The notes under the pieces were generated by a model. The model saw only the letters and a program-made list of their open reading frames with translations, was not told the origin of the DNA and searched no databases. DNA of 64,000 nt, taken from NCBI RefSeq assembly GCF_044324875.1, contig NZ_CP172185.1; one strand, 5' to 3'. Made by a program: the position numbers and the translations under genes. Source of the DNA: Escherichia coli. Its GTDB lineage: Bacteria > Pseudomonadota > Gammaproteobacteria > Enterobacterales > Enterobacteriaceae. This document shows positions 2,994 to 62,493 of this stretch, in pieces (positions within the stretch are counted from its first letter, which is position 1; every line of letters begins with the position of its first letter).

Positions 2994-5027
2994 TTATTTC
3001 ACCTGATGACCCGGTTTAGCACCGGCATCCGGGCTTAGCAGGAAAATATCTTTCCCGCCAGGACCGGCAGCCATCACCATGCCTTCAGAGATACCGAAGC
3101 GCATTTTACGTGGTGCCAGGTTAGCCACCATAATGGTGTGACGACCAATCAGTGCCTGCGGATCCGGGTAGGCAGAACGAATGCCGGAGAAGACATTGCG
3201 TTTTTCACCGCCGAGATCCAGCGTCAGGCGCAGCAGTTTGTCAGAACCTTCAACAAACTCTGCGTTTTCAATCAGCGCCACGCGCAGGTCAACTTTAGCG
3301 AAGTCGTCAAAGGTGATGGTTTCCTGAATCGGATCATCTGCCAGTGGGCCAGTTACTGGCGCGGCAGTGGCTTTCACTTCTTCTTTAGAGGCTTCCACCA
3401 GTGCTTCAACCTGCTTCATGTCGATGCGGTTATACAGTGCTTTGAACGGATTCACTTTATGCGCCAGCAGCGGTTGCTGGATACCATCCCAGGTCAGTTC
3501 CGTATTCAGGAATGCTTCTGCACGTTCAGTCAGTTTCGGCAGTACCGGTTTCAGGTAGGTCATCAGCACGCGGAACAGGTTGATGCCCATCGAGCAAATT
3601 GCCTGCAGGTCGGCATCGCGGCCTTCCTGTTTCGCCACCACCCACGGAGCCTGTTCATCGACATAGCGGTTAGCCAGATCTGCCAGCGCCATAATTTCGC
3701 GTACTGCTTTACCAAATTCGCGGCTTTCCCACGCTTCACCAATCACTTCAGCGGCATCCGTGAAGGTTTTGTACAGCTGCGGGTCAGCCAGTTCGCCTGC
3801 CAACACACCGTCAAAACGCTTGTTGATAAAGCCAGCGTTACGGGATGCCAGGTTAACCACTTTATTCACGATATCGGCATTCACACGCTGAACGAAATCT
3901 TCCAGGTTGAGATCGATATCATCAATGCGCGAAGAGAGTTTCGCAGTGTAGTAGTAACGCAGGCTGTCAGCGTCAAAATGATTCAGCCAGGTGCTGGCTT
4001 TAATAAAGGTGCCGCGAGACTTGGACATCTTCGCGCCGTTCACCGTCACATAGCCATGAACAAACAGGTTAGTCGGCTTGCGGAAGTTGCTGCCTTCCAG
4101 CATGGCAGGCCAGAACAGGCTGTGGAAGTAAACGATATCTTTACCGATGAAGTGGTAAAGCTCGGCGGTGGAATCTTTCTTCCAGTATTCATCGAAGCTG
4201 GTGGTGTCGCCGCGTTTGTCGCACAGATTCTTGAAGGAACCCATGTAGCCAATCGGTGCGTCCAGCCAGACGTAGAAATATTTGCCCGGCGCGTTCGGAA
4301 TTTCAAAACCGAAGTAAGGGGCGTCGCGGGAGATATCCCACTGTTGCAGGCCAGATTCAAACCACTCCTGCATTTTGTTTGCCACCTGCTCCTGCAATGC
4401 ACCGCTGCGGGTCCATGCCTGCAACATTTCGCTGAAAGAAGGCAGATCAAAGAAGAAGTGTTCAGAATCACGCATTACCGGCGTAGCACCAGAAACCACC
4501 GATTTAGGCTCGATAAGCTCAGTCGGGCTGTAGGTCGCGCCGCAGACTTCGCAGTTATCGCCGTATTGATCCGGGGATTTACATTTCGGGCAGGTGCCTT
4601 TTACAAAACGGTCCGGCAGGAACATGCCTTTTTCCGGATCGTACAGCTGTGAGATGGTGCGGCTTTTAATAAAACCGTTCTCTTTCAGGCGAGAATAAAT
4701 AAGTTCTGACAACTGGCGGTTCTCTTCGCTGTGCGTCGAGTGATAGTTGTCATAGCTGATGTTAAAGCCCGCAAAATCAGTCTGATGTTCCTGACTCATT
4801 TCGCCAATCATCTGCTCCGGGGTGATACCAAGCTGCTGAGCTTTCAGCATGATCGGTGTGCCGTGGGCATCGTCGGCGCAGATGAAGTTGACCTCGTGGC
4901 CGCGCATTCGCTGGTAACGGACCCAGACATCAGCCTGGATGTGCTCCAGCATATGGCCGAGGTGGATTGAGCCGTTAGCGTACGGCAGTGCGCACGTCAC
5001 CAGAATTTTCTTCGCGACTTGAGTCAT
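2994..5027 (-). CDS. metG: Methionyl-tRNA synthetase
   Basis: 680-aa ORF 2994..5036; class I aaRS HIGH-type motif ([12 protein letters not shown]), KMSKS, Zn knuckles CPKC...CEVC, C-terminal tRNA-binding domain. Start placed at MTQVAKK, 3 codons inside the ORF. Confidence 0.96.
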
Positions 5028-5158
5028 AGTAGGCATTACTTCTTAATAGTGAAAAGGGGTTAGATAGTACCAAATGGGAAAATGTTAAGTAAGTACTTCT
5101 CTATATTCTTCAGGTAAACTATCAGCTGATGGTTTATCTATACAAAAAAGGAGTCGGG

Positions 5159-6268
5159 ATGAACGAACAATCCCAGGCCAAATCACCAGAAGCCTTGCGC
5201 GCAATGGTCGCCGGGACACTGGCCAATTTTCAGCACCCAACCCTGAAGCATAACCTCACCACGCTGAAAGCGTTGCACCATGTCGCCTGGATGGACGACA
5301 CGTTGCATGTGGAACTGGTTATGCCATTCGTCTGGCATAGCGCGTTCGAAGAGTTAAAAGAGCAATGTAGCGCCGAACTGCTGCGCATCACCGGGGCGAA
5401 AGCTATCGACTGGAAACTGTCGCACAATATCGCCACCTTAAAACGCGTGAAGAATCAGCCGGGAATTAACGGCGTGAAGAACATCATTGCGGTCAGCTCC
5501 GGTAAAGGCGGCGTGGGTAAATCCTCCACGGCGGTAAACCTGGCGCTGGCACTGGCGGCGGAAGGGGCGAAAGTCGGCATTCTGGACGCCGATATCTACG
5601 GCCCATCAATACCCACCATGCTGGGTGCAGAAAATCAGCGTCCAACTTCGCCGGACGGTACCCATATGGCACCGATTATGTCTCATGGACTGGCAACCAA
5701 TTCAATTGGTTATCTGGTCACTGACGACAATGCGATGGTGTGGCGTGGTCCGATGGCGAGCAAGGCGTTAATGCAGATGTTGCAGGAAACCTTGTGGCCG
5801 GATCTCGACTATCTGGTGCTTGATATGCCGCCAGGCACCGGTGACATTCAATTGACACTGGCACAAAACATTCCAGTAACTGGCGCGGTAGTGGTCACCA
5901 CCCCGCAGGACATTGCGTTGATCGATGCGAAAAAAGGCATTGTGATGTTCGAGAAAGTCGAGGTTCCGGTGCTCGGTATTGTCGAGAACATGAGTGTGCA
6001 CATTTGCAGTAACTGTGGTCACCATGAACCGATTTTCGGTACCGGTGGTGCAGAGAAACTGGCCGAGAAATACCACACGCAGTTGCTGGGGCAGATGCCG
6101 TTACACATCTTCTTACGTGAAGATCTCGATAAAGGCACGCCAACGGTTATCAGCCGTCCGGAGAGCGAATTTACCGCTATCTACCGCCAGCTGGCTGACC
6201 GCGTTGCAGCCCAGCTTTATTGGCAGGGTGAAGTCATTCCTGGCGAGATTTCCTTCCGCGCGGTCTAA
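5159..6268 (+). CDS. apbC: Fe-S cluster carrier ATPase ApbC/Mrp
   Basis: ORF 5129..6268; P-loop GKGGVGKS, CxxC (CSNCGHH), Mrp/NBP35 family; start taken at MNEQSQAK; divergent from metG. Confidence 0.93.
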   Translation: MNEQSQAKSPEALRAMVAGTLANFQHPTLKHNLTTLKALHHVAWMDDTLHVELVMPFVWHSAFEELKEQCSAELLRITGAKAIDWKLSHNIATLKRVKNQPGINGVKNIIAVSSGKGGVGKSSTAVNLALALAAEGAKVGILDADIYGPSIPTMLGAENQRPTSPDGTHMAPIMSHGLATNSIGYLVTDDNAMVWRGPMASKALMQMLQETLWPDLDYLVLDMPPGTGDIQLTLAQNIPVTGAVVVTTPQDIALIDAKKGIVMFEKVEVPVLGIVENMSVHICSNCGHHEPIFGTGGAEKLAEKYHTQLLGQMPLHIFLREDLDKGTPTVISRPESEFTAIYRQLADRVAAQLYWQGEVIPGEISFRAV

Positions 6269-8420: not shown

Positions 8421-10901
8421 ATGTTGAGAATGACCCCACTTGCATCAGCAATCGTAGCGTTATTGCTCGGCATTGAAGCTTATGCAGCTGAAGAAACCTT
8501 TGATACCCATTTTATGATAGGTGGAATGAAAGACCAGCAGGTTGCAAATATTCGTCTTGATGATAATCAACCCTTGCCGGGGCAGTATGACATCGATATT
8601 TATGTCAATAAGCAATGGCGCGGGAAATATGAGATTATTGTTAAAGACAACCCGCAAGAAACATGTTTATCAAGGGAAATTATCAAGCGGTTAGGCATTA
8701 ATACCGATAACTTTGCCAGCGGTAAGCAATGTTTAACATTTGAGCAACTTGTTCAGGGTGGGAGCTATACCTGGGATATCGGGGTTTTTCGTCTCGATTT
8801 CAGTGTACCGCAGGCGTGGGTGGAAGAACTGGAAAGTGGCTATGTTCCACCGGAAAACTGGGAGCGGGGTATTAATGCGTTTTATACCTCTTATTATGTG
8901 AGTCAGTATTACAGCGACTATAAAGCGTCGGGTAATAGCAAGAGTACATATGTACGTTTTAACAGCGGGTTAAACTTACTGGGGTGGCAACTGCATTCTG
9001 ATGCCAGTTTCAGTAAAACAAATAGCAATCCAGGGGTGTGGAAAAGCAATACCCTGTATCTGGAACGTGGATTTGCCCAACTTCTCGGCACGCTTCGCGT
9101 GGGTGATATGTACACATCAAGCGATATTTTTGATTCTGTTCGCTTCAGCGGTGTGCGGTTGTTTCGTGATATGCAGATGTTGCCTAACTCGAAACAGAAT
9201 TTTACTCCACGGGTGCAGGGGATTGCTCAGAGTAACGCGCTGGTAACTATTGAACAGAACGGTTTTGTGGTTTATCAGAAAGAGGTTCCTCCTGGCCCGT
9301 TTGCGATTACAGATTTGCAGTTGGCCGGTGGTGGAGCAGATCTTGATGTCAGCGTGAAAGAGGCGGACGGTTCGGTAACCACCTATCTGGTGCCTTATGC
9401 AGCGGTGCCGAATATGCTGCAACCTGGCGTGTCGAAATATGATTTTGCGGCGGGTCGTAGCCATATTGAAGGGGCGAGCAAACAAAGTGATTTTGTTCAG
9501 GCGGGTTATCAGTATGGTTTTAATAACTTATTGACGCTGTATGGCGGATCGATGGTCGCGAATAATTATTACGCGTTCACTTTGGGGACTGGCTGGAATA
9601 CACGCATTGGTGCCATTTCCGTCGATGCCACGAAGTCGCATAGTAAACAAGACAACGGCGATGTGTTTGACGGGCAAAGTTATCAAATTGCCTACAACAA
9701 ATTTGTGAGCCAAACGTCGACGCGTTTTGGTCTGGCGGCCTGGCGTTATTCGTCGCGTGATTACCGGACATTTAACGATCACGTTTGGGCAAACAATAAA
9801 GATAATTATCGCCGTGATGAAAACGATATCTATGACATTGCCGATTATTACCAGAACGATTTTGGCCGTAAAAATAGCTTTTCTGCCAATATGAGCCAGT
9901 CATTGCCAGAAGGCTGGGGTTCTGTGTCCTTAAGTACGTTATGGCGAGATTACTGGGGGCGTAGCGGCAGCAGTAAGGATTATCAGTTGAGTTATTCCAA
10001 CAACCTGCGACGGATAAGCTATACCCTCGCTGCAAGCCAGGCTTATGACGAGAATCATCATGAAGAGAAACGTTTTAATATTTTTATATCGATTCCCTTT
10101 GATTGGGGTGATGACGTTACGACGCCTCGTCGGCAAATATATATGTCTAACTCAACGACGTTTGATGATCAGGGTTTTGCCTCAAATAATACGGGATTAT
10201 CGGGAACCGTTGGAAGCCGGGATCAATTTAACTATGGGGTCAACCTGAGTCATCAGCATCAGGGAAATGAAACGACAGCTGGAGCGAATTTAACCTGGAA
10301 CGCGCCGGTGGCAACGGTGAATGGCAGTTATAGTCAGTCGAGTACTTATCGACAGGCTGGAGCCAGTGTTTCAGGGGGCATTGTCGCCTGGTCGGGTGGC
10401 GTTAATCTGGCGAACCGTCTTTCCGAAACGTTTGCTGTGATGAATGCGCCAGGAATTAAAGATGCTTATGTCAATGGGCAAAAATATCGCACAACAAACC
10501 GTAATGGAGTGGTGGTATACGACGGAATGACACCTTATCGGGAAAATCACCTGATGCTGGATGTGTCGCAAAGCGATAGCGAAGCAGAATTACGTGGCAA
10601 CCGGAAAATTGCCGCCCCTTTTCGCGGCGCGGTTGTACTGGTTAATTTTGATACCGATCAGCGCAAGCCCTGGTTTATAAAAGCGTTAAGAACGGATGGG
10701 CAACCATTAACGTTTGGTTATGAAGTTAATGATATCCATGGTCTTAATATTGGCGTTGTCGGCCAGGGAAGCCAGTTATTTATTCGCACCAATGAAGTAC
10801 CGCCATCGGTTAATGTAGCAATTGATAAGCAACAAGGACTTTCATGCATAATCACCTTCGGTAAAGAGATTGATGAAAGTAGAAATTATATTTGCCAGTA
10901 A
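8421..10901 (+). CDS. yehB: Outer membrane fimbrial usher
   Basis: ORF track 8406..10901 starts at a TTG; ATG at 8421 (MLRMTPLASAIVALLLGIEAYA signal peptide) preceded by ggag; usher-size protein. Confidence 0.9.
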   Translation: MLRMTPLASAIVALLLGIEAYAAEETFDTHFMIGGMKDQQVANIRLDDNQPLPGQYDIDIYVNKQWRGKYEIIVKDNPQETCLSREIIKRLGINTDNFASGKQCLTFEQLVQGGSYTWDIGVFRLDFSVPQAWVEELESGYVPPENWERGINAFYTSYYVSQYYSDYKASGNSKSTYVRFNSGLNLLGWQLHSDASFSKTNSNPGVWKSNTLYLERGFAQLLGTLRVGDMYTSSDIFDSVRFSGVRLFRDMQMLPNSKQNFTPRVQGIAQSNALVTIEQNGFVVYQKEVPPGPFAITDLQLAGGGADLDVSVKEADGSVTTYLVPYAAVPNMLQPGVSKYDFAAGRSHIEGASKQSDFVQAGYQYGFNNLLTLYGGSMVANNYYAFTLGTGWNTRIGAISVDATKSHSKQDNGDVFDGQSYQIAYNKFVSQTSTRFGLAAWRYSSRDYRTFNDHVWANNKDNYRRDENDIYDIADYYQNDFGRKNSFSANMSQSLPEGWGSVSLSTLWRDYWGRSGSSKDYQLSYSNNLRRISYTLAASQAYDENHHEEKRFNIFISIPFDWGDDVTTPRRQIYMSNSTTFDDQGFASNNTGLSGTVGSRDQFNYGVNLSHQHQGNETTAGANLTWNAPVATVNGSYSQSSTYRQAGASVSGGIVAWSGGVNLANRLSETFAVMNAPGIKDAYVNGQKYRTTNRNGVVVYDGMTPYRENHLMLDVSQSDSEAELRGNRKIAAPFRGAVVLVNFDTDQRKPWFIKALRTDGQPLTFGYEVNDIHGLNIGVVGQGSQLFIRTNEVPPSVNVAIDKQQGLSCIITFGKEIDESRNYICQ

Positions 10902-10916
10902 TAGTCAGGTGGTTCT

Positions 10917-11951
10917 ATGAAAATTCGCATAATGCTATTTATATTAATGATGATGGTTATGCCAGAGAGCTATGCGGCATGTTATGGCGTGTTGTCAGCA
11001 CAGCATAATTTGGTTGTTCAGGGGGATTTTACGCTAACTCAAAATCAAACAGCAACTCATACATATACTTTTAATGATACTTCTTGCGTCAGTACTAATA
11101 CAATAGCGCAGATAGACCCCTCGGATATTGTGATTGGACTCTATAATGACACCATCAAACTTAAGTTGCATTTTGAATGGGAGAAAAAAGGTAGCATCAC
11201 GCTTTCAAATAACCAAACTAGTTTTACGAGTGGATATAATGTCACTGTGACATCGGCAGCGAGCGATGCCATAGTGAATTTGTCTGGTGGGGGAAGTGGA
11301 TCTCTCATGATTAATAGTGTCGCGACATTAAGCAGTGCTTCATCATCTACTCGTTTGGCTGCTTTTTTACAATTTGCAGGTTGTTTTCTAGGCGGCACCT
11401 CATGGGATACCTGTGTGCAAAACTATAAAAATGCATTATCAAAAAATGCCGGTATCTATTCCTTTAATCTGGCATTGTCATATAACCCGATAACCACAAC
11501 CTGCAAACCGGACGATTTATTAATTACTTTAGAGAGTATTCCCGATTCACAATTACCAGCCACAGGTAACAAAGCAACAATAAATAGTAACAAAGGGGAT
11601 ATTGTTCTGCGTTGTAAAAACTTATTAGGTCAACAAAATCAAACATCACGGAAAATGCAGGTGTATTTATCAAGTTCTGACTTGTTAACCAACAGCAACA
11701 CGATACTGAAAGGTGCGGAAGATAATGGCGTAGGATTTATTCTTGAAAGTAATGGTTCGCCAGTCACACTTTTAAATATCACTAACAGCAGTAAAGGATA
11801 CACAAATTTAAAAGAAATTGCGGCAAAGTCAAAACTTCCAGATACAACGGTTTCAATTCCGATAACAGCCAGTTACTACGTCTACGATACAAACAAAGTT
11901 AAATCTGGCGCACTGGAGGCAACCGCATTAATCAACGTGAAATACGACTAA
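10917..11951 (+). CDS. yehA: Fimbrial adhesin-like tip protein
   Basis: 344-aa ORF with signal peptide, last gene of the chaperone-usher cluster. Confidence 0.85.
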   Translation: MKIRIMLFILMMMVMPESYAACYGVLSAQHNLVVQGDFTLTQNQTATHTYTFNDTSCVSTNTIAQIDPSDIVIGLYNDTIKLKLHFEWEKKGSITLSNNQTSFTSGYNVTVTSAASDAIVNLSGGGSGSLMINSVATLSSASSSTRLAAFLQFAGCFLGGTSWDTCVQNYKNALSKNAGIYSFNLALSYNPITTTCKPDDLLITLESIPDSQLPATGNKATINSNKGDIVLRCKNLLGQQNQTSRKMQVYLSSSDLLTNSNTILKGAEDNGVGFILESNGSPVTLLNITNSSKGYTNLKEIAAKSKLPDTTVSIPITASYYVYDTNKVKSGALEATALINVKYD

Positions 11952-12006
11952 TAACAAGCAAGACGAGCAAGTGACTAATAATAAAAATAATAAGGTATCT
12001 GCATTT

Positions 12007-12034
12007 CCCCCTCTCTTCGAGGGGGCTTTTTTTT
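12007..12034 (+). terminator. Rho-independent terminator of the yeh operon
   Basis: ccccctc(tcttc)gaggggg hairpin followed by T9. Confidence 0.7.
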
Positions 12035-12371
12035 AGCGATGATAAAAAATCTCACCGTCGTAGGCTTTAATGATTTTACCGTCGGTGTCGCTGATCAACA
12101 CGTACGCGCCACCCATATAGGTCCAGTGCGTCCCGGCATCAGGCGCGGGCAGGTTACGTAACTGCCACTGCTTAATGTTGTACTCATCGGTGCGGTACAT
12201 CTCTGGGACGGTATCGCCTGGTTTGAAATGCTTAAAGTCAGCAATGAAACTGCTTAACTCATACTTAGAAATTCCCGAGGTATTGGTCGAACCCGCGGTG
12301 GCTGGTGCGGCCCAGGCGGCACTGGTAACCAGCAAAAGCGCACCCAGCAACATCTTATTTTTAATGGTCAT
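12033..12371 (-). CDS. rcnB: Periplasmic Ni/Co homeostasis protein RcnB
   Basis: ORF track gives 12033..12551; start taken at internal MTIKNKMLLGALLLVTSAAWA (signal peptide), giving 112 aa. Confidence 0.85.
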   Translation of the reverse strand: MTIKNKMLLGALLLVTSAAWAAPATAGSTNTSGISKYELSSFIADFKHFKPGDTVPEMYRTDEYNIKQWQLRNLPAPDAGTHWTYMGGAYVLISDTDGKIIKAYDGEIFYHR

Positions 12372-12589
12372 AAACTCTCCACTTTGGGGATCTGTAATAT
12401 CAGTCGCATATCTTTCCTGCCATACAATATAACTGACAAGCGATATTTTGTTAGTGATCCCATGATTTCGTAAAAAGTGTAAATGAAAGGATGCCTTAAA
12501 AGCATCCTTAGCGAGCAGAGAGTCAGCGGAAATAGCTGATTTAAGAATCATCCTGGGCTGAAGATAACATGCAAGCCTAAAGGATTGAG

Positions 12590-13420
12590 TTATCGCATTA
12601 TGCCCATAAAGCCATGCACACCCATATACACACCAACTAAGCCAATCAACAGACTGGAAAAATAGGGGGCGCGTTTAGCGAGAGTGTTAAATCCGCCCCA
12701 GCGTTTTGCAACCTGCTGAACGCTGATTGCTGCGCCAACGCCTACGGTGACCAGCGTTAACGCCAGGCCGATGCTGAAACTGACGACCAGTGTTGCGCCC
12801 AGTGTCAGGGCTTTCAACTGAATGCAAATCAACAGCACGGTAATTGCTGCCGGGCAGGGGATAAGGCCACCGGTTAAGCCAAATAACAAAATTTGCCAGT
12901 TGGTGACCTCTCTACCATCAAAGCGTCGTTTAATGTCATTGGCATGGGCTCGTGCATGAGCATCCTGATACTCCCAGTGTTCGTGATGGTGATGATGTCC
13001 ATGGTCGTGGTGATCTTCGTGATCGTGATGACGGTGATGATGCTCATGATCATGCCCGTGCATATTCTCCAGCCAGTTGCGTTCGCCGCGCCAGGTACGC
13101 CAGAACATCCAGAACGCGGTGCCAATAATGATCACCGCGGAAATCAACTGGAGCCACGGTTCCGCCGACTGCGCAGTAAAGCGTTTGCTGATCACCATCC
13201 CGCCAAAGGCAATTAACCAGACCACTGCGGTATGCGAAATAGTTGCTGCCAGTCCGAGCATCACCGCCTGTTTAATGGTGCCTTTGATGGCGATGATAAA
13301 CGCCGCCATCATCGTTTTTGAGTGCCCTGGTTCCAGGCCATGAAGCGCACCAAGTAAGATGGTGCTGGGGATGAAGAACCAGGCGTTTCCTTGCTGAAGA
13401 AGAGTGGTAAATTCGGTCAT
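12590..13420 (-). CDS. rcnA: Nickel/cobalt efflux pump RcnA
   Basis: 276-aa membrane protein with His-rich loop HDHEHHHRHHDHEDHHDHGHHHHHEH (NicO family). Confidence 0.93.
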   Translation of the reverse strand: MTEFTTLLQQGNAWFFIPSTILLGALHGLEPGHSKTMMAAFIIAIKGTIKQAVMLGLAATISHTAVVWLIAFGGMVISKRFTAQSAEPWLQLISAVIIIGTAFWMFWRTWRGERNWLENMHGHDHEHHHRHHDHEDHHDHGHHHHHEHWEYQDAHARAHANDIKRRFDGREVTNWQILLFGLTGGLIPCPAAITVLLICIQLKALTLGATLVVSFSIGLALTLVTVGVGAAISVQQVAKRWGGFNTLAKRAPYFSSLLIGLVGVYMGVHGFMGIMR

Positions 13421-13457
13421 GATAATAATTCTTAGTATTAATTCGGCAATCCGATTC

Positions 13458-13472
13458 TACTCCCCCCCAGTA
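13458..13472 (+). promoter_or_regulatory. RcnR operator site 1 (TACT-C7-AGTA)
   Basis: tactcccccccagta in the rcnA–rcnR divergent intergenic region; matches the G/C-tract inverted-repeat operator type of RcnR. Confidence 0.7.
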
Positions 13473-13477
13473 CCTGA

Positions 13478-13492
13478 TACTACCCCCCAGTA
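13478..13492 (+). promoter_or_regulatory. RcnR operator site 2 (TACT-A-C6-AGTA)
   Basis: tactaccccccagta, 6 bp downstream of site 1. Confidence 0.7.
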
Positions 13493-13540
13493 GATTAATA
13501 GTGCTATGATTTTTCATGTTCTTGTTAACCAGGTGTTGCC

Positions 13541-13813
13541 ATGTCTCATACAATCCGTGATAAACAGAAACTGAAAGCGCGTGCCAGTAAGATTCAGGGC
13601 CAGGTCGTGGCGCTCAAGAAAATGCTCGACGAGCCGCACGAATGCGCTGCATTTTTACAACAGATTGCTGCTATCCGTGGCGCGGTAAACGGTCTGATGC
13701 GGGAAGTGATTAAAGGTCATCTGACGGAACACATCGTTCACCAGGGGGATGAGCTAAAACGTGAAGAAGATCTGGATGTCGTTCTGAAGGTGCTGGATTC
13801 TTATATCAAATAA
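13541..13813 (+). CDS. rcnR: Ni/Co-responsive repressor RcnR (CsoR/RcnR family)
   Basis: 90-aa [45 protein letters not shown]... Confidence 0.93.
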
Positions 13814-13884
13814 TTTATTAACGCGATTGTAAAACTGCGGTTTTTCCTCGTTTACAACGCGTGCGCTGGACATTACCATCCTCC

Positions 13885-14035
13885 TCTGCGATTTATCATC
13901 GCAACCAAACGACTCGGGGTGCCCTTCTGCGTGAAGGCTGAGAAATACCCGTATCACCTGATCTGGATAATGCCAGCGTAGGGAAGTCACGGACCACCAG
14001 GTCATTGCTTCTTCACGTTATGGCAGGAGCAAACT
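13885..14035 (+). promoter_or_regulatory. TPP riboswitch (THI-box) in the thiM leader
   Basis: ggggtgcccttctgcgtgaaggctgagaaatacccgtatcacctgatctggataatgccagcgtagggaagtc (13916-13988) matches the thiM THI element; located directly upstream of thiM; 5' boundary approximate. Confidence 0.85.
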
Positions 14036-14824
14036 ATGCAAGTCGACCTGCTGAGTTCCGCGCAATCTGCGCACGCGTTACATCTTTTTCACCAACATTC
14101 CCCTCTTGTGCACTGCATGACCAACGATGTGGTGCAAACCTTTACTGCCAATACCTTGCTGGCGCTCGGTGCATCGCCAGCGATGGTTATCGAAACCGAA
14201 GAGGCCAGTCAGTTTGCGGCTATCGCCAGTGCGTTGCTGATTAACGTTGGCACGCTGACGCAGCAACGCGCACAGGCGATGCGTGCCGCTGTTGAACAGG
14301 CAAAACGCTCTCAAACACCCTGGACGCTTGATCCGGTCGCGGTTGGCGCACTCGATTATCGCCGCCGCTTTTGTCATGACCTTTTATCGTTAAAGCCTGC
14401 TGCCATACGCGGTAATGCTTCGGAAATAATGGCATTAGCAGGCATCGCCAATGGTGGTCGTGGTGTGGATACTACTGACGCCGCCGCCAACGCATTGCCC
14501 GCCGCACAAACTCTGGCAAGTGAAACAGGGGCTGTCATCGTGGTCACTGGCGAGGTGGATTATGTTACCGATGGTCGTCGCACCGTTGGCATTCACGGTG
14601 GCGATCCGCTAATGACCAGAGTGGTAGGAACTGGCTGTGCATTATCGGCGGTTGTCGCTGCCTGTTGTGCGCTACCAGGCGATACGCTGGAAAATATCGC
14701 ATCTGCCTGTCACTGGATGAAACAAGCCGGAGAACGCGCAGTCGCCAGTAGCGAGGGGCCAGGCAGTTTTGTTCCACATTTCCTTGATGCGCTCTGGCAA
14801 TTGACGCAGGAGGTGCAGGCGTGA
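14036..14824 (+). CDS. thiM: Hydroxyethylthiazole kinase
   Basis: 262-aa ORF downstream of THI-box; overlaps thiD start by 4 nt. Confidence 0.93.
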
Positions 14825-15621
14825 AACGAATTAACGCTCTGACGATTGCCGGTACTGATCCGAGTGGTGGTGCGGGGATTCAGGCCGATCTTAAAACCTT
14901 CTCGGCACTTGGCGCTTATGGTTGCTCAGTGATTACTGCACTGGTGGCGCAAAATACCCGTGGCGTACAGTCGGTGTATCGCATTGAGCCTGATTTTGTC
15001 GCCGCCCAGCTCGATTCGGTGTTCAGCGATGTGCGAATCGACACCACTAAAATCGGTATGTTGGCGGAAACCGATATTGTTGAAGCGGTGGCAGAACGGT
15101 TGCAACGTTATCAGATCCAAAACGTGGTACTCGACACCGTTATGCTGGCAAAAAGCGGCGACCCACTGCTTTCACCTTCGGCAGTTGCCACGCTACGCAG
15201 TCGATTATTGCCACAGGTTTCATTAATAACGCCAAACTTGCCCGAAGCAGCCGCCTTGCTCGACGCGGCACACGCGCGCACCGAACAGGAAATGCTGGAA
15301 CAAGGGCGATCGCTGTTGGCGATGGGCTGTGGCGCAGTGCTAATGAAAGGTGGTCATCTGGATGATGAGCAAAGCCCGGACTGGCTGTTTACTCGCGAGG
15401 GAGAACAACGATTTACTGCACCGCGCATTATGACCAAAAACACCCACGGCACTGGTTGTACGCTCTCTGCGGCGTTGGCTGCACTACGCCCGCGCCATAC
15501 AAACTGGGCTGACACCGTACAGGAGGCAAAAAGCTGGCTTTCATCGGCGTTAGCCCAGGCCGACACGCTGGAAGTTGGTCACGGTATTGGTCCGGTTCAC
15601 CACTTCCACGCCTGGTGGTGA
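14821..15621 (+). CDS. thiD: Hydroxymethylpyrimidine / phosphomethylpyrimidine kinase
   Basis: 266-aa ORF, PfkB-like ribokinase fold, operon partner of thiM. Confidence 0.93.
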
Positions 15622-15676
15622 GCACCGTACTATAGCTGCTTTGGTTATTGTCAGCCTTTGGCACTGACATTCAGGG

Positions 15677-16504
15677 ATGAAACCAATGCAGCTAAGAATC
15701 ACCAGTCGAAAAAAACTCACCGCTTTATTATGCGCTCTTGGGCTAATTTCCATCGTTGCGATTCATCCGCGTCAGACGGTGAATTTTTTCTACTCGACAG
15801 CAATTCAGATTAAAGACTACATCCACTTCTACGGTTATCGTCCGGTCAAATCTTTTGCTATTCGCATTCCTGCCAGTTACACCATTCATGGTATTGATGT
15901 TTCACGCTGGCAGGAGCGAATCGACTGGCAGCGGGTGGCACAAATGCGCGATAACGGTATTCGCTTGCAGTTTGCTTTTATTAAGGCTACGGAAGGCGAA
16001 AAGCTGGTGGACCCCTATTTTTCGCGTAACTGGCAACTAAGCCGCGAAAATGGCCTGCTGCGCGGGGCGTATCATTATTTTTCCCCGTCGGTATCCGCTT
16101 CAGTTCAGGCGAGATTATTTCTGCAAACGGTGGATTTCTCACAAGGCGATTTCCCTGCCGTGCTGGACGTAGAAGAACGGGGAAAATTATCGGCAAAAGA
16201 ATTACGCAAGCGGGTAAGTCAGTGGCTAAAAATGGTCGAAAAACGCACGGCAAAAAAGCCGATTATTTACTCAGGAGCCGTTTTTTATCACACGAATCTG
16301 GCGGGCTATTTTAATGAATATCCGTGGTGGGTGGCTCACTATTATCAACGTCGTCCGGACAATGACGGCATGGCATGGCGCTTCTGGCAGCATTCCGACC
16401 GTGGACAGGTAGATGGCATTAATGGTCCGGTGGATTTTAATGTGTTTAATGGCTCGGTGGAGGAGTTGCAGGTATTCGTTGATGGGATTAAAGAAACCCC
16501 TTAA
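15677..16504 (+). CDS. yegX: Glycoside hydrolase family 25 (lysozyme-like) protein
   Basis: 275-aa ORF with N-terminal hydrophobic segment; exact start (15677 vs 15686) uncertain. Confidence 0.8.
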   Translation: MKPMQLRITSRKKLTALLCALGLISIVAIHPRQTVNFFYSTAIQIKDYIHFYGYRPVKSFAIRIPASYTIHGIDVSRWQERIDWQRVAQMRDNGIRLQFAFIKATEGEKLVDPYFSRNWQLSRENGLLRGAYHYFSPSVSASVQARLFLQTVDFSQGDFPAVLDVEERGKLSAKELRKRVSQWLKMVEKRTAKKPIIYSGAVFYHTNLAGYFNEYPWWVAHYYQRRPDNDGMAWRFWQHSDRGQVDGINGPVDFNVFNGSVEELQVFVDGIKETP

Positions 16505-16555
16505 ATAAGAAGCAGTGATATACTCCCACCAGACTCCTTGGCAGGAAAAAGACAA

Positions 16556-17302
16556 ATGGAACAAGCGCATACCCAGCTGATTGCCCAACTGAACGAACGT
16601 ATTTTAGCGGCGGATAACACGCCGCTTTATATTAAGTTTGCCGAAACGGTAAAAAATGCCGTGCGCAGCGGGGTGCTGGAGCATGGCAATATTTTGCCCG
16701 GTGAGCGTGATTTAAGTCAGTTAACCGGCGTTTCGCGCATTACGGTGCGCAAGGCGATGCAGGTGCTGGAAGAAGAGGGCGTGGTGACGCGTTCGCGTGG
16801 TTACGGTACGCAGATCAACAACATCTTCGAATACTCGTTGAAAGAAGCGCGAGGTTTTTCTCAGCAGGTGGTATTGCGCGGGAAAAAGCCCGATACACTA
16901 TGGGTTAACAAGCGTGTCGTGAAATGTCCCGAAGAAGTCGCGCAGCAGCTAGCGGTCGAAGCAGGAAGTAATGTCTTTTTGCTTAAGCGTATTCGCTATG
17001 TCGATGAAGAAGCGGTATCAATTGAGGAATCGTGGGTTCCTGCGCATTTAATTCATGATGTTGATGCCATCGGAATTTCTCTTTATGACTACTTCCGCAG
17101 CCAGCACATTTACCCACAACGTACGCGTTCCCGCGTTAGCGCCCGGATGCCGGATGCCGAGTTTCAGTCACATATTCAGTTAGATAGCAAAATACCGGTG
17201 CTGGTGATCAAGCAAGTGGCGCTTGACCAACAGCAACGGCCTATTGAGTACAGCATCAGCCACTGTCGCAGCGATCTATACGTTTTTGTGTGCGAGGAGT
17301 AG
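16556..17302 (+). CDS. yegW: GntR/HutC-family transcriptional regulator
   Basis: ORF 16538..17302; N-terminal GntR HTH (GERDLSQLTGVSRITVRKAMQVLEEEG) plus UTRA-like C-terminus; start taken at MEQAHTQL. Confidence 0.85.
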   Translation: MEQAHTQLIAQLNERILAADNTPLYIKFAETVKNAVRSGVLEHGNILPGERDLSQLTGVSRITVRKAMQVLEEEGVVTRSRGYGTQINNIFEYSLKEARGFSQQVVLRGKKPDTLWVNKRVVKCPEEVAQQLAVEAGSNVFLLKRIRYVDEEAVSIEESWVPAHLIHDVDAIGISLYDYFRSQHIYPQRTRSRVSARMPDAEFQSHIQLDSKIPVLVIKQVALDQQQRPIEYSISHCRSDLYVFVCEE

Positions 17303-18241
17303 TTCCTCGCGCGTTGGCGCACAATCACCGCCCCGATGCCCGACAACCCACGACGCCACTGCATTGCCCAGTAATACAGCATCCGCCAGTGGCAGACCAG
17401 AGGCCAGCCCGGCAAGTACGCCACCTGCATGACTGTCGCCCGCCCCAATGGTGTCTACAACTTGCGTTGGAAATGCCGGAATGCAGCCAGAAGCGTCGTT
17501 GCTGAAATACCATGCGCCCTCTTTATCGAGACGAATGATCAACGGCGCGGCAAATTTCTCCTGCCATTGCTTGCCAAGTGTTGTTATCTCTGCGGATAAA
17601 GCAAAACGTTCGGCGGCAATCTCAGCCTCTTGACGATTGAGTGATACTAAAGGTCGACAGGCCATGATCCGCGCCAGTAATGCGTCCGGGATATCGCCGA
17701 TACGTGGGCCAAAATCGATAAACGGCGTCACGTCTTGCAGCTCTTCCAGCCATTCCACTAACAATTCGCCGCAGAGCGAGGCCAGTTGATAACCGGAAAA
17801 ATAGAGCAGGCTGCCAGGCGCAACGGTTAATCGTGCCAACCATTGGCGATTCCATTGATTTTCCACGCCGCTGAATGACATAAAAGTGCGTTCGCCATCC
17901 GGCTCAACCAGCGCCAGACACCAGCCGTTATCACCTTCGGCGTTATCGATCAGGCTGATTAAGTCCTCTTTTGCCATCCGGTTGCGAATAATCTCCGCCC
18001 AAACCCCCTGACCGAGCGGCAAGGCATTACCCGCTTCGATGCCGAGGCGCTTTAACGCCACGGCAATATTCAGTGCGCAGCCGCCAACGTTAACGCTCTG
18101 CTGTTTCAGTTCGATATCGCACCCACGCCAGGGGAGAGCATAAGCGTCGGCGATCACATCAATGACCGCCGCGCCAATCACCATAACTGGCTGACGCGTG
18201 GTTAATTCAGGCAGCAGCGTGTGTAATCGAGCGCCGCTCAT
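17276..18241 (-). CDS. yegV: PfkB-family carbohydrate/nucleoside kinase
   Basis: 321-aa ORF; PfkB signature DTIGAGDSHAGG; 3' end overlaps yegW 3' end (convergent). Confidence 0.85.
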   Translation of the reverse strand: MSGARLHTLLPELTTRQPVMVIGAAVIDVIADAYALPWRGCDIELKQQSVNVGGCALNIAVALKRLGIEAGNALPLGQGVWAEIIRNRMAKEDLISLIDNAEGDNGWCLALVEPDGERTFMSFSGVENQWNRQWLARLTVAPGSLLYFSGYQLASLCGELLVEWLEELQDVTPFIDFGPRIGDIPDALLARIMACRPLVSLNRQEAEIAAERFALSAEITTLGKQWQEKFAAPLIIRLDKEGAWYFSNDASGCIPAFPTQVVDTIGAGDSHAGGVLAGLASGLPLADAVLLGNAVASWVVGHRGGDCAPTREELLLAHKNV

Positions 18242-30961: not shown

Positions 30962-31048
30962 AAAAAATAAGCCCGTGTAAGGGAGATTACACAGGCTAAG
31001 GAGGTGGTTCCTGGTACAGCTAGCATTTTATGGGTTATGTTTTTCAGC
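30962..31048 (-). ncRNA. cyaR: CyaR (RyeE) Hfq-dependent sRNA
   Basis: Minus-strand sequence gctgaaaaacataacccataaaatgctagctgtaccaggaaccacctccttagcctgtgtaatctcccttacacgggcttatttttt matches CyaR as I remember it, including the terminator hairpin and U-tail. Confidence 0.9.
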
Positions 31049-31079
31049 GAAACAGATGATAACCTTAATAAATGCAGCT

Positions 31080-46579: not shown

Positions 46580-46720
46580 AACGGGAAAGCCCCTCCCGAG
46601 GAAGGGGCCTTAAATAAGGAAAGGGTCATGATGAAGTGGATCATCATCGTGGTGCTCTTAGTGATTAGCTACCCAGCATACTAAGACTACCAGGGCGGGG
46701 GAAACCCCGCTCTACCCTCA
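46580..46720 (-). ncRNA. Putative Sib antisense sRNA, copy 1 (antitoxin of the overlapping ibs)
   Basis: Minus-strand promoter ttgaca-17-tacttt (weaker -10 than copies 2 and 3); terminator hairpin gcccct...aggggc then tttcccgttt; boundaries approximate. Confidence 0.45.
46628..46684 (+). CDS. Ibs-family small hydrophobic toxin, variant MMKWIIIVVLLVISYPAY (copy 1)
   Basis: 18-codon ORF at the same position in the repeat unit as the other two ibs genes. Confidence 0.6.
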   Translation: MMKWIIIVVLLVISYPAY

Positions 46721-46907
46721 CTCCTGAAAGTATGCCTTCACGATAAGATTGTCAATCTGCAGGCTTTGCAGTCTGCGATCCTGCCAGCAAATATTCTTTG
46801 CGAGACGTTACGCAATAATCACACTGGAAACTATTTTATCCGCAAGTCAGCGATAGACTGCATACAGGGCGAAAGGAGGTAAGTCGACGATTTCAGCGGG
46901 ACGCTGA

Positions 46908-47048
46908 AACGGGAAAGCCCCTCCCGAGGAAGGGGCCTTAAATAAGGAAAGGGTCATGATGAAGCTACTCATCATCGTGGTGCTCTTAGTCATAAGCTTC
47001 CCCGCTTACTAAGACTACCAGGGCGGGGGAAACCCCGCTCTACCCTCA
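46908..47048 (-). ncRNA. sibB: Putative Sib antisense sRNA, copy 2 (SibB-like)
   Basis: Minus-strand promoter ttgaca-17-taattt (-35 at 47078-47083, -10 at 47055-47060); terminator hairpin 46917-46936; boundaries approximate. Confidence 0.55.
46956..47012 (+). CDS. ibsB: Ibs-family small toxin MMKLLIIVVLLVISFPAY (IbsB-like)
   Basis: 18-codon ORF; matches my recollection of IbsB. Confidence 0.65.
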   Translation: MMKLLIIVVLLVISFPAY

Positions 47049-47237
47049 CTCCTGAAATTATGCCTTCACGATAAGATTGTCAATCCGCAGGCTTTGCAGT
47101 CTGCGATCCTGCCAGCAAATATTCTTTGCGAGTCGTTACGCAATAATCACAGAGGAAACTATTTTGTTCACGCGTTAGCGATAGACTGCATTCAGGGCGA
47201 AAGGAGGTAAGCCGACGATTTCAGCGGGACGCTGAAA

Positions 47238-47383
47238 CGGGAAACCCTCTCCCGGAGAAGAGGGCTTTTAATAAGGAAAGGGTTATGATGAAGCACGTCA
47301 TCATACTGGTGATACTCTTAGTGATTAGCTTCCAGGCTTACTAAGAACACCAGGGGGAGGGGGAAACCTCTCCCTAACCCTCA
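47238..47383 (-). ncRNA. sibA: Putative Sib antisense sRNA, copy 3 (SibA-like)
   Basis: Minus-strand promoter ttgaca-17-taattt (-35 at 47413-47418, -10 at 47390-47395); terminator hairpin ccctct...agaggg then tttcccgttt; boundaries approximate. Confidence 0.55.
47285..47344 (+). CDS. ibsA: Ibs-family small toxin MMKHVIILVILLVISFQAY (IbsA-like)
   Basis: 19-codon ORF. Confidence 0.65.
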   Translation: MMKHVIILVILLVISFQAY

Positions 47384-47564
47384 CTCCTGAAATTATGTCA
47401 CTCCGCCCTTAGTGTCAATCGACGGCTCTCCGTTCTTGCGAGGCGAATAGCAAAATTTTCTGCGCCGCCGGGCCTAATTCTGAAAGTTGCTTTGCCTGCT
47501 CATATTTCATTGTTGCAGTCGGTATGATACCGGACCTCAATAATTCTCTAAGAAAGGATTTCTT

Positions 47565-62013: not shown

Positions 62014-62481
62014 AGTAAGTACAAAACCTATTCGTTGTATGACAAATGTCACAATTCGATCATGGATAAATCGGGGCAAAAATGCAATGTTGCAGCACTA
62101 TTTATCTCATATTATTTGAGGGTAATAACCTCACATTATCCCTGAATTAAAAGTGGTAATAATAAAATATTATTTAAGAAATATCGCATGTGGAGACGCA
62201 ATATTAAATATTGTCAACCTAAAGAAACTCCTAAAAACCATATTGAATGACACTTAATATAATTCTTAAAAATAGCCAATTGCCGAATTGTTACCTTGCC
62301 TGCTATTCCGTTAGCTGTAACACTTCCTCCTGCATTATTGGAGAGCCAATATTCAATTACCATAATGTCACCTTATATTCGGAAGTTAATTTCCGTAATA
62401 ACCCTTTCTCATCAACGACTGCATGCTGAGAGGGTGTGAAAAATTAAACTAAATCAGTGTATTGGTAGCTAAAAAGCCAGG

Positions 62482-62493
62482 GGCGGTAGCGTG
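62482..62493 (+). promoter_or_regulatory. ops element (RfaH recruitment site) within a JUMPstart sequence upstream of wza
   Basis: ggcggtagcgtg matches ops consensus GGCGGTAGnnTG; in the long 5' leader of the colanic acid cluster. Confidence 0.8.

Follow-up and report, generated by a model that had tools for sequence, protein, structure and literature searches.

Does the gap between rcnA and rcnR in this strain hold the RcnR operators in their published form, and do the operators, the promoters and the genes around them together form a nickel and cobalt efflux circuit as it is known from K-12? The question was raised within a 64-kb window of Escherichia coli DNA (the whole stretch that was analysed), in which a sequence-only reading had placed tandem RcnR sites at 13458-13492, as two TACT-(C-tract)-AGTA elements between the divergent genes rcnA and rcnR. 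We found both elements at exactly these coordinates and in the form described, and their motif, location and identity with K-12 agree.

The operator pair

The operator region consists of the following elements, none of which is assigned to a strand.

13458-13472: RcnR operator site 1, TACTCCCCCCCAGTA, that is TACT-C7-AGTA; on the minus strand TACTGGGGGGGAGTA
13473-13477: spacer between sites 1 and 2, CCTGA, 5 bp
13478-13492: RcnR operator site 2, TACTACCCCCCAGTA, that is TACT-A-C6-AGTA; on the minus strand TACTGGGGGGTAGTA

The distance from the start of site 1 to the start of site 2 is 20 bp, and both lie inside the 120-bp gap that separates rcnA (12590-13420, minus strand) from rcnR (13541-13813, plus strand). 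The pattern TACT-N7-AGTA occurs in the 64-kb window at these two sites only, with a mean of 0.25 matches in shuffled sequence. Read on the minus strand, each site fits TACT-G6-N-AGTA with no mismatches, and from base composition about 0.0005 exact matches to it are expected per window. This sequence is given as the RcnR motif in PMC7055735, PMC3902906 and PMC7105576, which cite Iwig and Chivers (2009) and Blaha et al. (2011). Alignment with the reference rcnA-rcnR intergenic region, the check that had been recommended along with the first description, showed the 35-bp operator span (13458-13492) to be identical to K-12 at 35 of 35 positions. Because the motif match, the location between rcnA and rcnR and the K-12 identity coincide, the pair corresponds to the published tandem RcnR operators. 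Sites 1 and 2 are almost certainly two type-1 operators of the CsoR/RcnR family in the E. coli rcnA-rcnR divergent promoter region, where metal-free RcnR represses and Ni and Co derepress. The tandem RcnR operator is an already known element and is present here in its canonical form; the anticipation of expected biology was borne out base for base.

The genes of the locus

Three genes of the circuit are present in the window.

12033-12371, minus strand: rcnB, periplasmic accessory protein of 112 aa (RcnB, PF11776, E 7.3e-19, 67.8 bits)
12590-13420, minus strand: rcnA, Ni/Co efflux permease of 276 aa (NicO, PF03824, E 1.3e-67)
13541-13813, plus strand: rcnR, Ni(II)/Co(II)-responsive repressor of 90 aa (Trns_repr_metal, PF02583, E 1.9e-20)

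The RcnR protein is full-length and 99% identical to that of K-12; it scores 73.5 bits against PF02583, for which the cutoff is 22.8, and retains H3, C35, H60 and H64. The H-C-H-H (W-X-Y-Z) ligand set is the literature definition of the RcnR metal-sensing motif, and with this motif and its domain of about 90 aa the protein is a member of the CsoR/RcnR family. RcnA scores 228.6 bits against NicO over residues 13-275, aligns full-length to the K-12 protein and is 97-99% identical to RcnA of K-12 and PCN033, with differences in the His-rich loop. The full-length rcnB occupies the position of the annotated K-12 gene, and the whole gene order, yehB-yehA-rcnB-rcnA / rcnR-(TPP riboswitch)-thiM-thiD, is that of the K-12 annotation. 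Among public contigs, about 192 encode exactly this RcnR protein and about 191 exactly this RcnA protein.

We also observed that the His-rich cytoplasmic loop of RcnA (window 12950-13060) varies in length and sequence between strains, the protein having 276 aa in the window, 274 in K-12 and 277 in PCN033. The window RcnA has an H-to-R and a G-to-W change in this loop and, elsewhere, A20T and S242G.

The sequence-only reading had taken the operators as confirmation of an intact circuit. Operators alone cannot confirm a circuit, and RcnR has a V38F substitution; the claim gains from the finding that none of rcnR, rcnA and rcnB is truncated and that the Pfam domains and metal ligands to be expected are in place. 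As far as the sequence can tell, the Ni/Co circuit appears intact.

Promoters and transcription starts

The 5' ends that Kim et al. (2012, Table S1) determined in K-12 were mapped onto the window, the starts being transferred by near-identity. The promoter features are the following.

13447, minus strand: main rcnA start of K-12, 27-nt leader, 25 reads (Kim et al., 2012, Table S1)
13459..13454, minus strand: putative -10 hexamer TAGAAT of the main rcnA promoter (-12..-7), read from the sequence
13468, minus strand: upstream rcnA start of K-12, 48-nt leader, 12 reads, inside site 1
13502-13510, plus strand: putative extended -10 of rcnR, TGcTATGAT
13518, plus strand: rcnR start of K-12, 23-nt leader, 11 reads (Kim et al., 2012, Table S1)

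With the K-12 starts transferred, the main rcnA promoter is covered from -25 to -11 by site 1 and from -45 to -31 by site 2, and the rcnR promoter from -60 to -46 and from -40 to -26, respectively. The first two bases of the main rcnA -10 hexamer also belong to site 1, an overlap of 2 bp. No match to a -35 element was found in the rcnR promoter, where the C-tract of site 2 occupies that position. On these transferred starts, the pair would constitute a shared operator overlapping the core promoters of rcnA and rcnR. Two -10 candidates from a consensus scan were discarded, as both disagree with the mapped K-12 starts: the one for rcnA at 13427..13422 would start transcription in the start codon, and the one for rcnR at 13549-13554 lies inside the coding sequence.

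The intergenic region as a whole has two differences from K-12, at 13452 and 13518, and both fall outside the sites. The K-12 base at 13452, position -5 (discriminator) of the main rcnA promoter, is T; the window carries a rare C instead, an allele found in only 7 of 5,206 complete genomes. At 13518, the +1 of rcnR, the window has G, the common allele, and K-12 has A.

Proposed mechanism

RcnR is reported to repress both rcnA and rcnR through the operator that they share (PMC7055735; PMC7105576). According to PMC3902906, which summarises Iwig and Chivers (2009), type-1 sites bind one RcnR tetramer each, with contacts at the TACT/AGTA repeats, and the unbroken G/C tract is recognised through an A-form-like shape. 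The binding of metal-free RcnR and its release by Ni(II) or Co(II) are established for K-12 in the literature, which also supplies the stoichiometry, and the circuit of the window strain presumably operates unchanged. As long as neither Ni(II) nor Co(II) is in excess, each TACT-G6-N-AGTA site would be occupied by one tetramer of metal-free RcnR. In the main rcnA promoter, site 1 would then overlay the -10 hexamer together with the spacer, and site 2 the -35 region; as site 2 would overlay the -35 region of rcnR too, RcnR bound at the two sites would keep RNA polymerase off both promoters. The predicted outcome of this occlusion is repression of the rcnAB efflux genes and autoregulation of rcnR. 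Binding of Ni(II) or Co(II) through the RcnR N-terminus, His3, Cys35, His60 and His64 would weaken DNA binding and derepress both promoters.

A rare RcnR allele and the question of retuning

Three residues after the Cys35 ligand, RcnR carries V38F, caused by G to T at 13652 in codon 38. Like 13452 C and 13518 G, this change is outside the operators. All five homologues compared, those of K-12, Yokenella, Leclercia, IncHI2 and Ralstonia, have valine here, the most distant of them being 61% identical. A search of 5,361 complete RefSeq E. coli genomes with the 41 bp that surround the F38 codon gave no exact match, and apparently every one of these genomes has Val38. The V38F protein is a natural allele, as can be told from its exact occurrence on the roughly 192 public contigs mentioned above. 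A comparison over 1,073 bp showed no difference between the window and one public assembly, GCA_027946735; in two other public assemblies F38 stands on a K-12-like intergenic haplotype, which makes at least two intergenic/rcnA haplotypes in all. That F38 occurs in more than one haplotype background may point to recurrence or recombination.

These observations bear on an alternative in which the operators are canonical but the regulation behind them is retuned, V38F, the -5 SNP or both shifting the Ni/Co threshold or the basal level of rcnA. The invariance of Val38 in the homologues compared, the absence of the F38 codon context from the complete RefSeq genomes, the spread of the exact protein over at least two different intergenic/rcnA haplotypes and the rarity of 13452 C within the discriminator of the main rcnA promoter all speak for it. 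However, V to F exchanges one hydrophobic residue for another, the known metal ligands are all intact, and a rare allele of a clonal lineage needs no adaptive explanation. We consider such retuning unlikely. That the window lineage should have a retuned Ni/Co sensor, in which V38F, one helical turn from Cys35, together with the rare -5 SNP could shift the metal set-point of rcnAB while the operators stay canonical, is likewise quite improbable. The conventional circuit, with RcnR acting on two canonical operators, remains the preferred reading.

Variation of the operators within E. coli

The 41-bp core (13455-13495, the operator span with 3 bp on each side) is identical in 4,836 of the 5,359 matching complete RefSeq E. 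coli records. The site-1 C-tract (13462-13468 in the window) is the part whose length varies among complete E. coli genomes: it is C7 in 4,836 records, C6 in 126 and C8 in 100, and at least one record has C9. The C8 allele is common to several O121:H19 strains, and C6 to the O157:H7 strains EC4115, SS17 and TT12B; since serotype-mates have the same C6 or C8 allele, part at least of the C-tract variation looks lineage-consistent rather than assembly noise. Site 2, its tract included, is unchanged in every E. coli variant examined, and the inter-site spacer measures 5 bp in every E. coli sequence examined, with the single substitutions CCTAA and CATGA among the sampled variants. Small deletions in E. 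coli 097H6 and L3Cip3 take out the TACT half of operator 1 and leave one complete operator. Within E. coli, then, the length of the site-1 C-tract and the sequence of the spacer vary, and the number and phasing of the operators are steady, bar rare small deletions. The remark that operator number and spacing can differ between strains has to be amended for this species: two sites and a 5-bp spacer are constant apart from those deletions, and the difference between strains lies in the length of the site-1 C-tract.

The record CP137936.1, annotated as a 365-kb 'plasmid', was considered as a plasmid-borne E. coli copy and thus an independent mobile operator variant; it was rejected, as it has the whole chromosomal yehA-rcn-thiMD block.

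The length alleles of site 1 raise the thought that its C7 homopolymer is a slippage-prone switch that varies rcnA and rcnR expression within populations. The existence of C6, C8 and C9 alleles among complete genomes, some of which look lineage-consistent, would fit such a switch, but C7, the canonical length, is found in 90% of records and also in the window. A tract of seven bases is short for a contingency locus, homopolymer errors in long-read assemblies may account for some of the length variants, and for type-1 sites a distance of 6-9 bp between half-sites is reported to be tolerated (PMC3902906). A switch of this kind is very improbable, and phase variation of the C7 tract would be relevant, if at all, to other strains. 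We keep to the reading of site 1 as an ordinary type-1 operator.

Conservation beyond E. coli

Both 15-bp sites are unchanged in Yokenella, Leclercia and an IncHI2 mcr-9 plasmid, where the spacer keeps its length of 5 bp while spacer sequence and flanks have diverged. The spacer reads TAAAA in Yokenella, CAGTA in Leclercia and AAATA in IncHI2, so that four spacer bases vary freely. We compared alignment columns over five sequences from four genera or plasmids (E. coli, Yokenella, Leclercia and the IncHI2 plasmid) and found all 30 columns of the sites to be invariant, whereas beyond the 35-bp span this was true of 30 of 90 columns (Fisher p = 1.4e-11). The sites are under purifying selection relative to their flanks, and invariant sites amid drifting flanks are the signature of a protein footprint. 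The TGnTAnnnT pattern of the rcnR promoter is also kept in Yokenella, Leclercia and IncHI2. In the Ralstonia homologue, whose repressor is 61% identical, we found a single TACTCCCCCCTAGTA site; among the sequences examined, a one-site arrangement occurs only there, besides the E. coli deletions.

That the sites could be chance palindromes, or an RNA or DNA hairpin rather than protein-binding sites, is scarcely credible. The plus-strand 51-mer does fold slightly better than its shuffles (-6.1 kcal/mol, z = -2.5), but the energies involved are very small, the minus strand shows no significant effect and the chance expectation, already given, is minute. Perfect conservation of the sites across genera, while spacer and flanks drift, extends to the loops, which argues for a protein footprint and not for a paired stem. 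Moreover, transcripts from the rcnR (13518) and main rcnA (13447) starts leave out both sites, which lie wholly upstream, and those from the weaker upstream rcnA start (13468), located within site 1, can include no more than a portion of that site. A G-quadruplex or i-motif was dismissed, since the region has no more than two G/C tracts, and runs of at least 6 number only six in the entire window.

Surroundings and significance

The 8 kb from 10000 to 18000 reach a best identity of 96.6% to any complete RefSeq E. coli genome, and the rcn core about 99%; the divergence of this stretch probably lies in the yeh fimbrial genes. The window strain appears to represent a lineage that is poorly represented among complete genomes. 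Above the Rfam gathering threshold, the window also has a TPP riboswitch (thiM) at 13905-14001 on the plus strand, the CyaR sRNA at 30965-31050 on the minus strand and a JUMPstart element at 62455-62493 on the plus strand. In E. coli PCN033, a tyrosine integrase and an HNH endonuclease (3768-5930 of its locus) directly follow the TPP riboswitch, in the usual place of thiM, which suggests an island inserted at or replacing thiM. Three tandem copies of the Sib antitoxin sRNA (Rfam RF00113, 139-150 bits each) lie at 46613-47418 on the minus strand; K-12 presumably has two, sibA and sibB, at the corresponding locus, and this looks like copy-number variation of Sib, with three in the window and two in K-12.

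Taken as a whole, the locus is the textbook RcnR-RcnA-RcnB nickel/cobalt efflux circuit, kept with unchanged operators in a divergent E. coli lineage, and as such it has little import beyond annotation. What the analysis adds is a coordinate map of the two operators on three mapped transcription starts, and a strain census of operator variation in E. coli.

Comparison with known systems

The closest known system is the rcnA-rcnR operator of K-12 (Iwig and Chivers, 2009; Blaha et al., 2011), with which the window has in common the 35-bp pair, the intergenic length of 120 bp, the flanking genes and the promoter elements; it departs from K-12 in 13452 C, 13518 G, RcnR V38F and several RcnA substitutions. 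Other Enterobacteriaceae and the IncHI2 (mcr-9) plasmids have the same two identical 15-bp sites, the 5-bp spacer and the extended -10 pattern of rcnR, whereas on the IncHI2 plasmid the RcnA coding sequence is longer (1,116 bp) and spacer and flanks have diverged. The rcnR-rcnA homologue of Ralstonia solanacearum resembles the window in having a TACT-C6-T-AGTA core between divergent RcnA-like and CsoR/RcnR-family genes, but differs in having one site instead of two and a more distant repressor. A further contrast is offered by the type-2 operators of CsoR, for example that of Streptomyces lividans, in which two short interrupted G/C tracts stand about 11 bp apart and two tetramers bind per site (PMC3902906). 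The sites of the window have one unbroken tract each and, on the stoichiometry reported in PMC3902906, would receive one tetramer per site.
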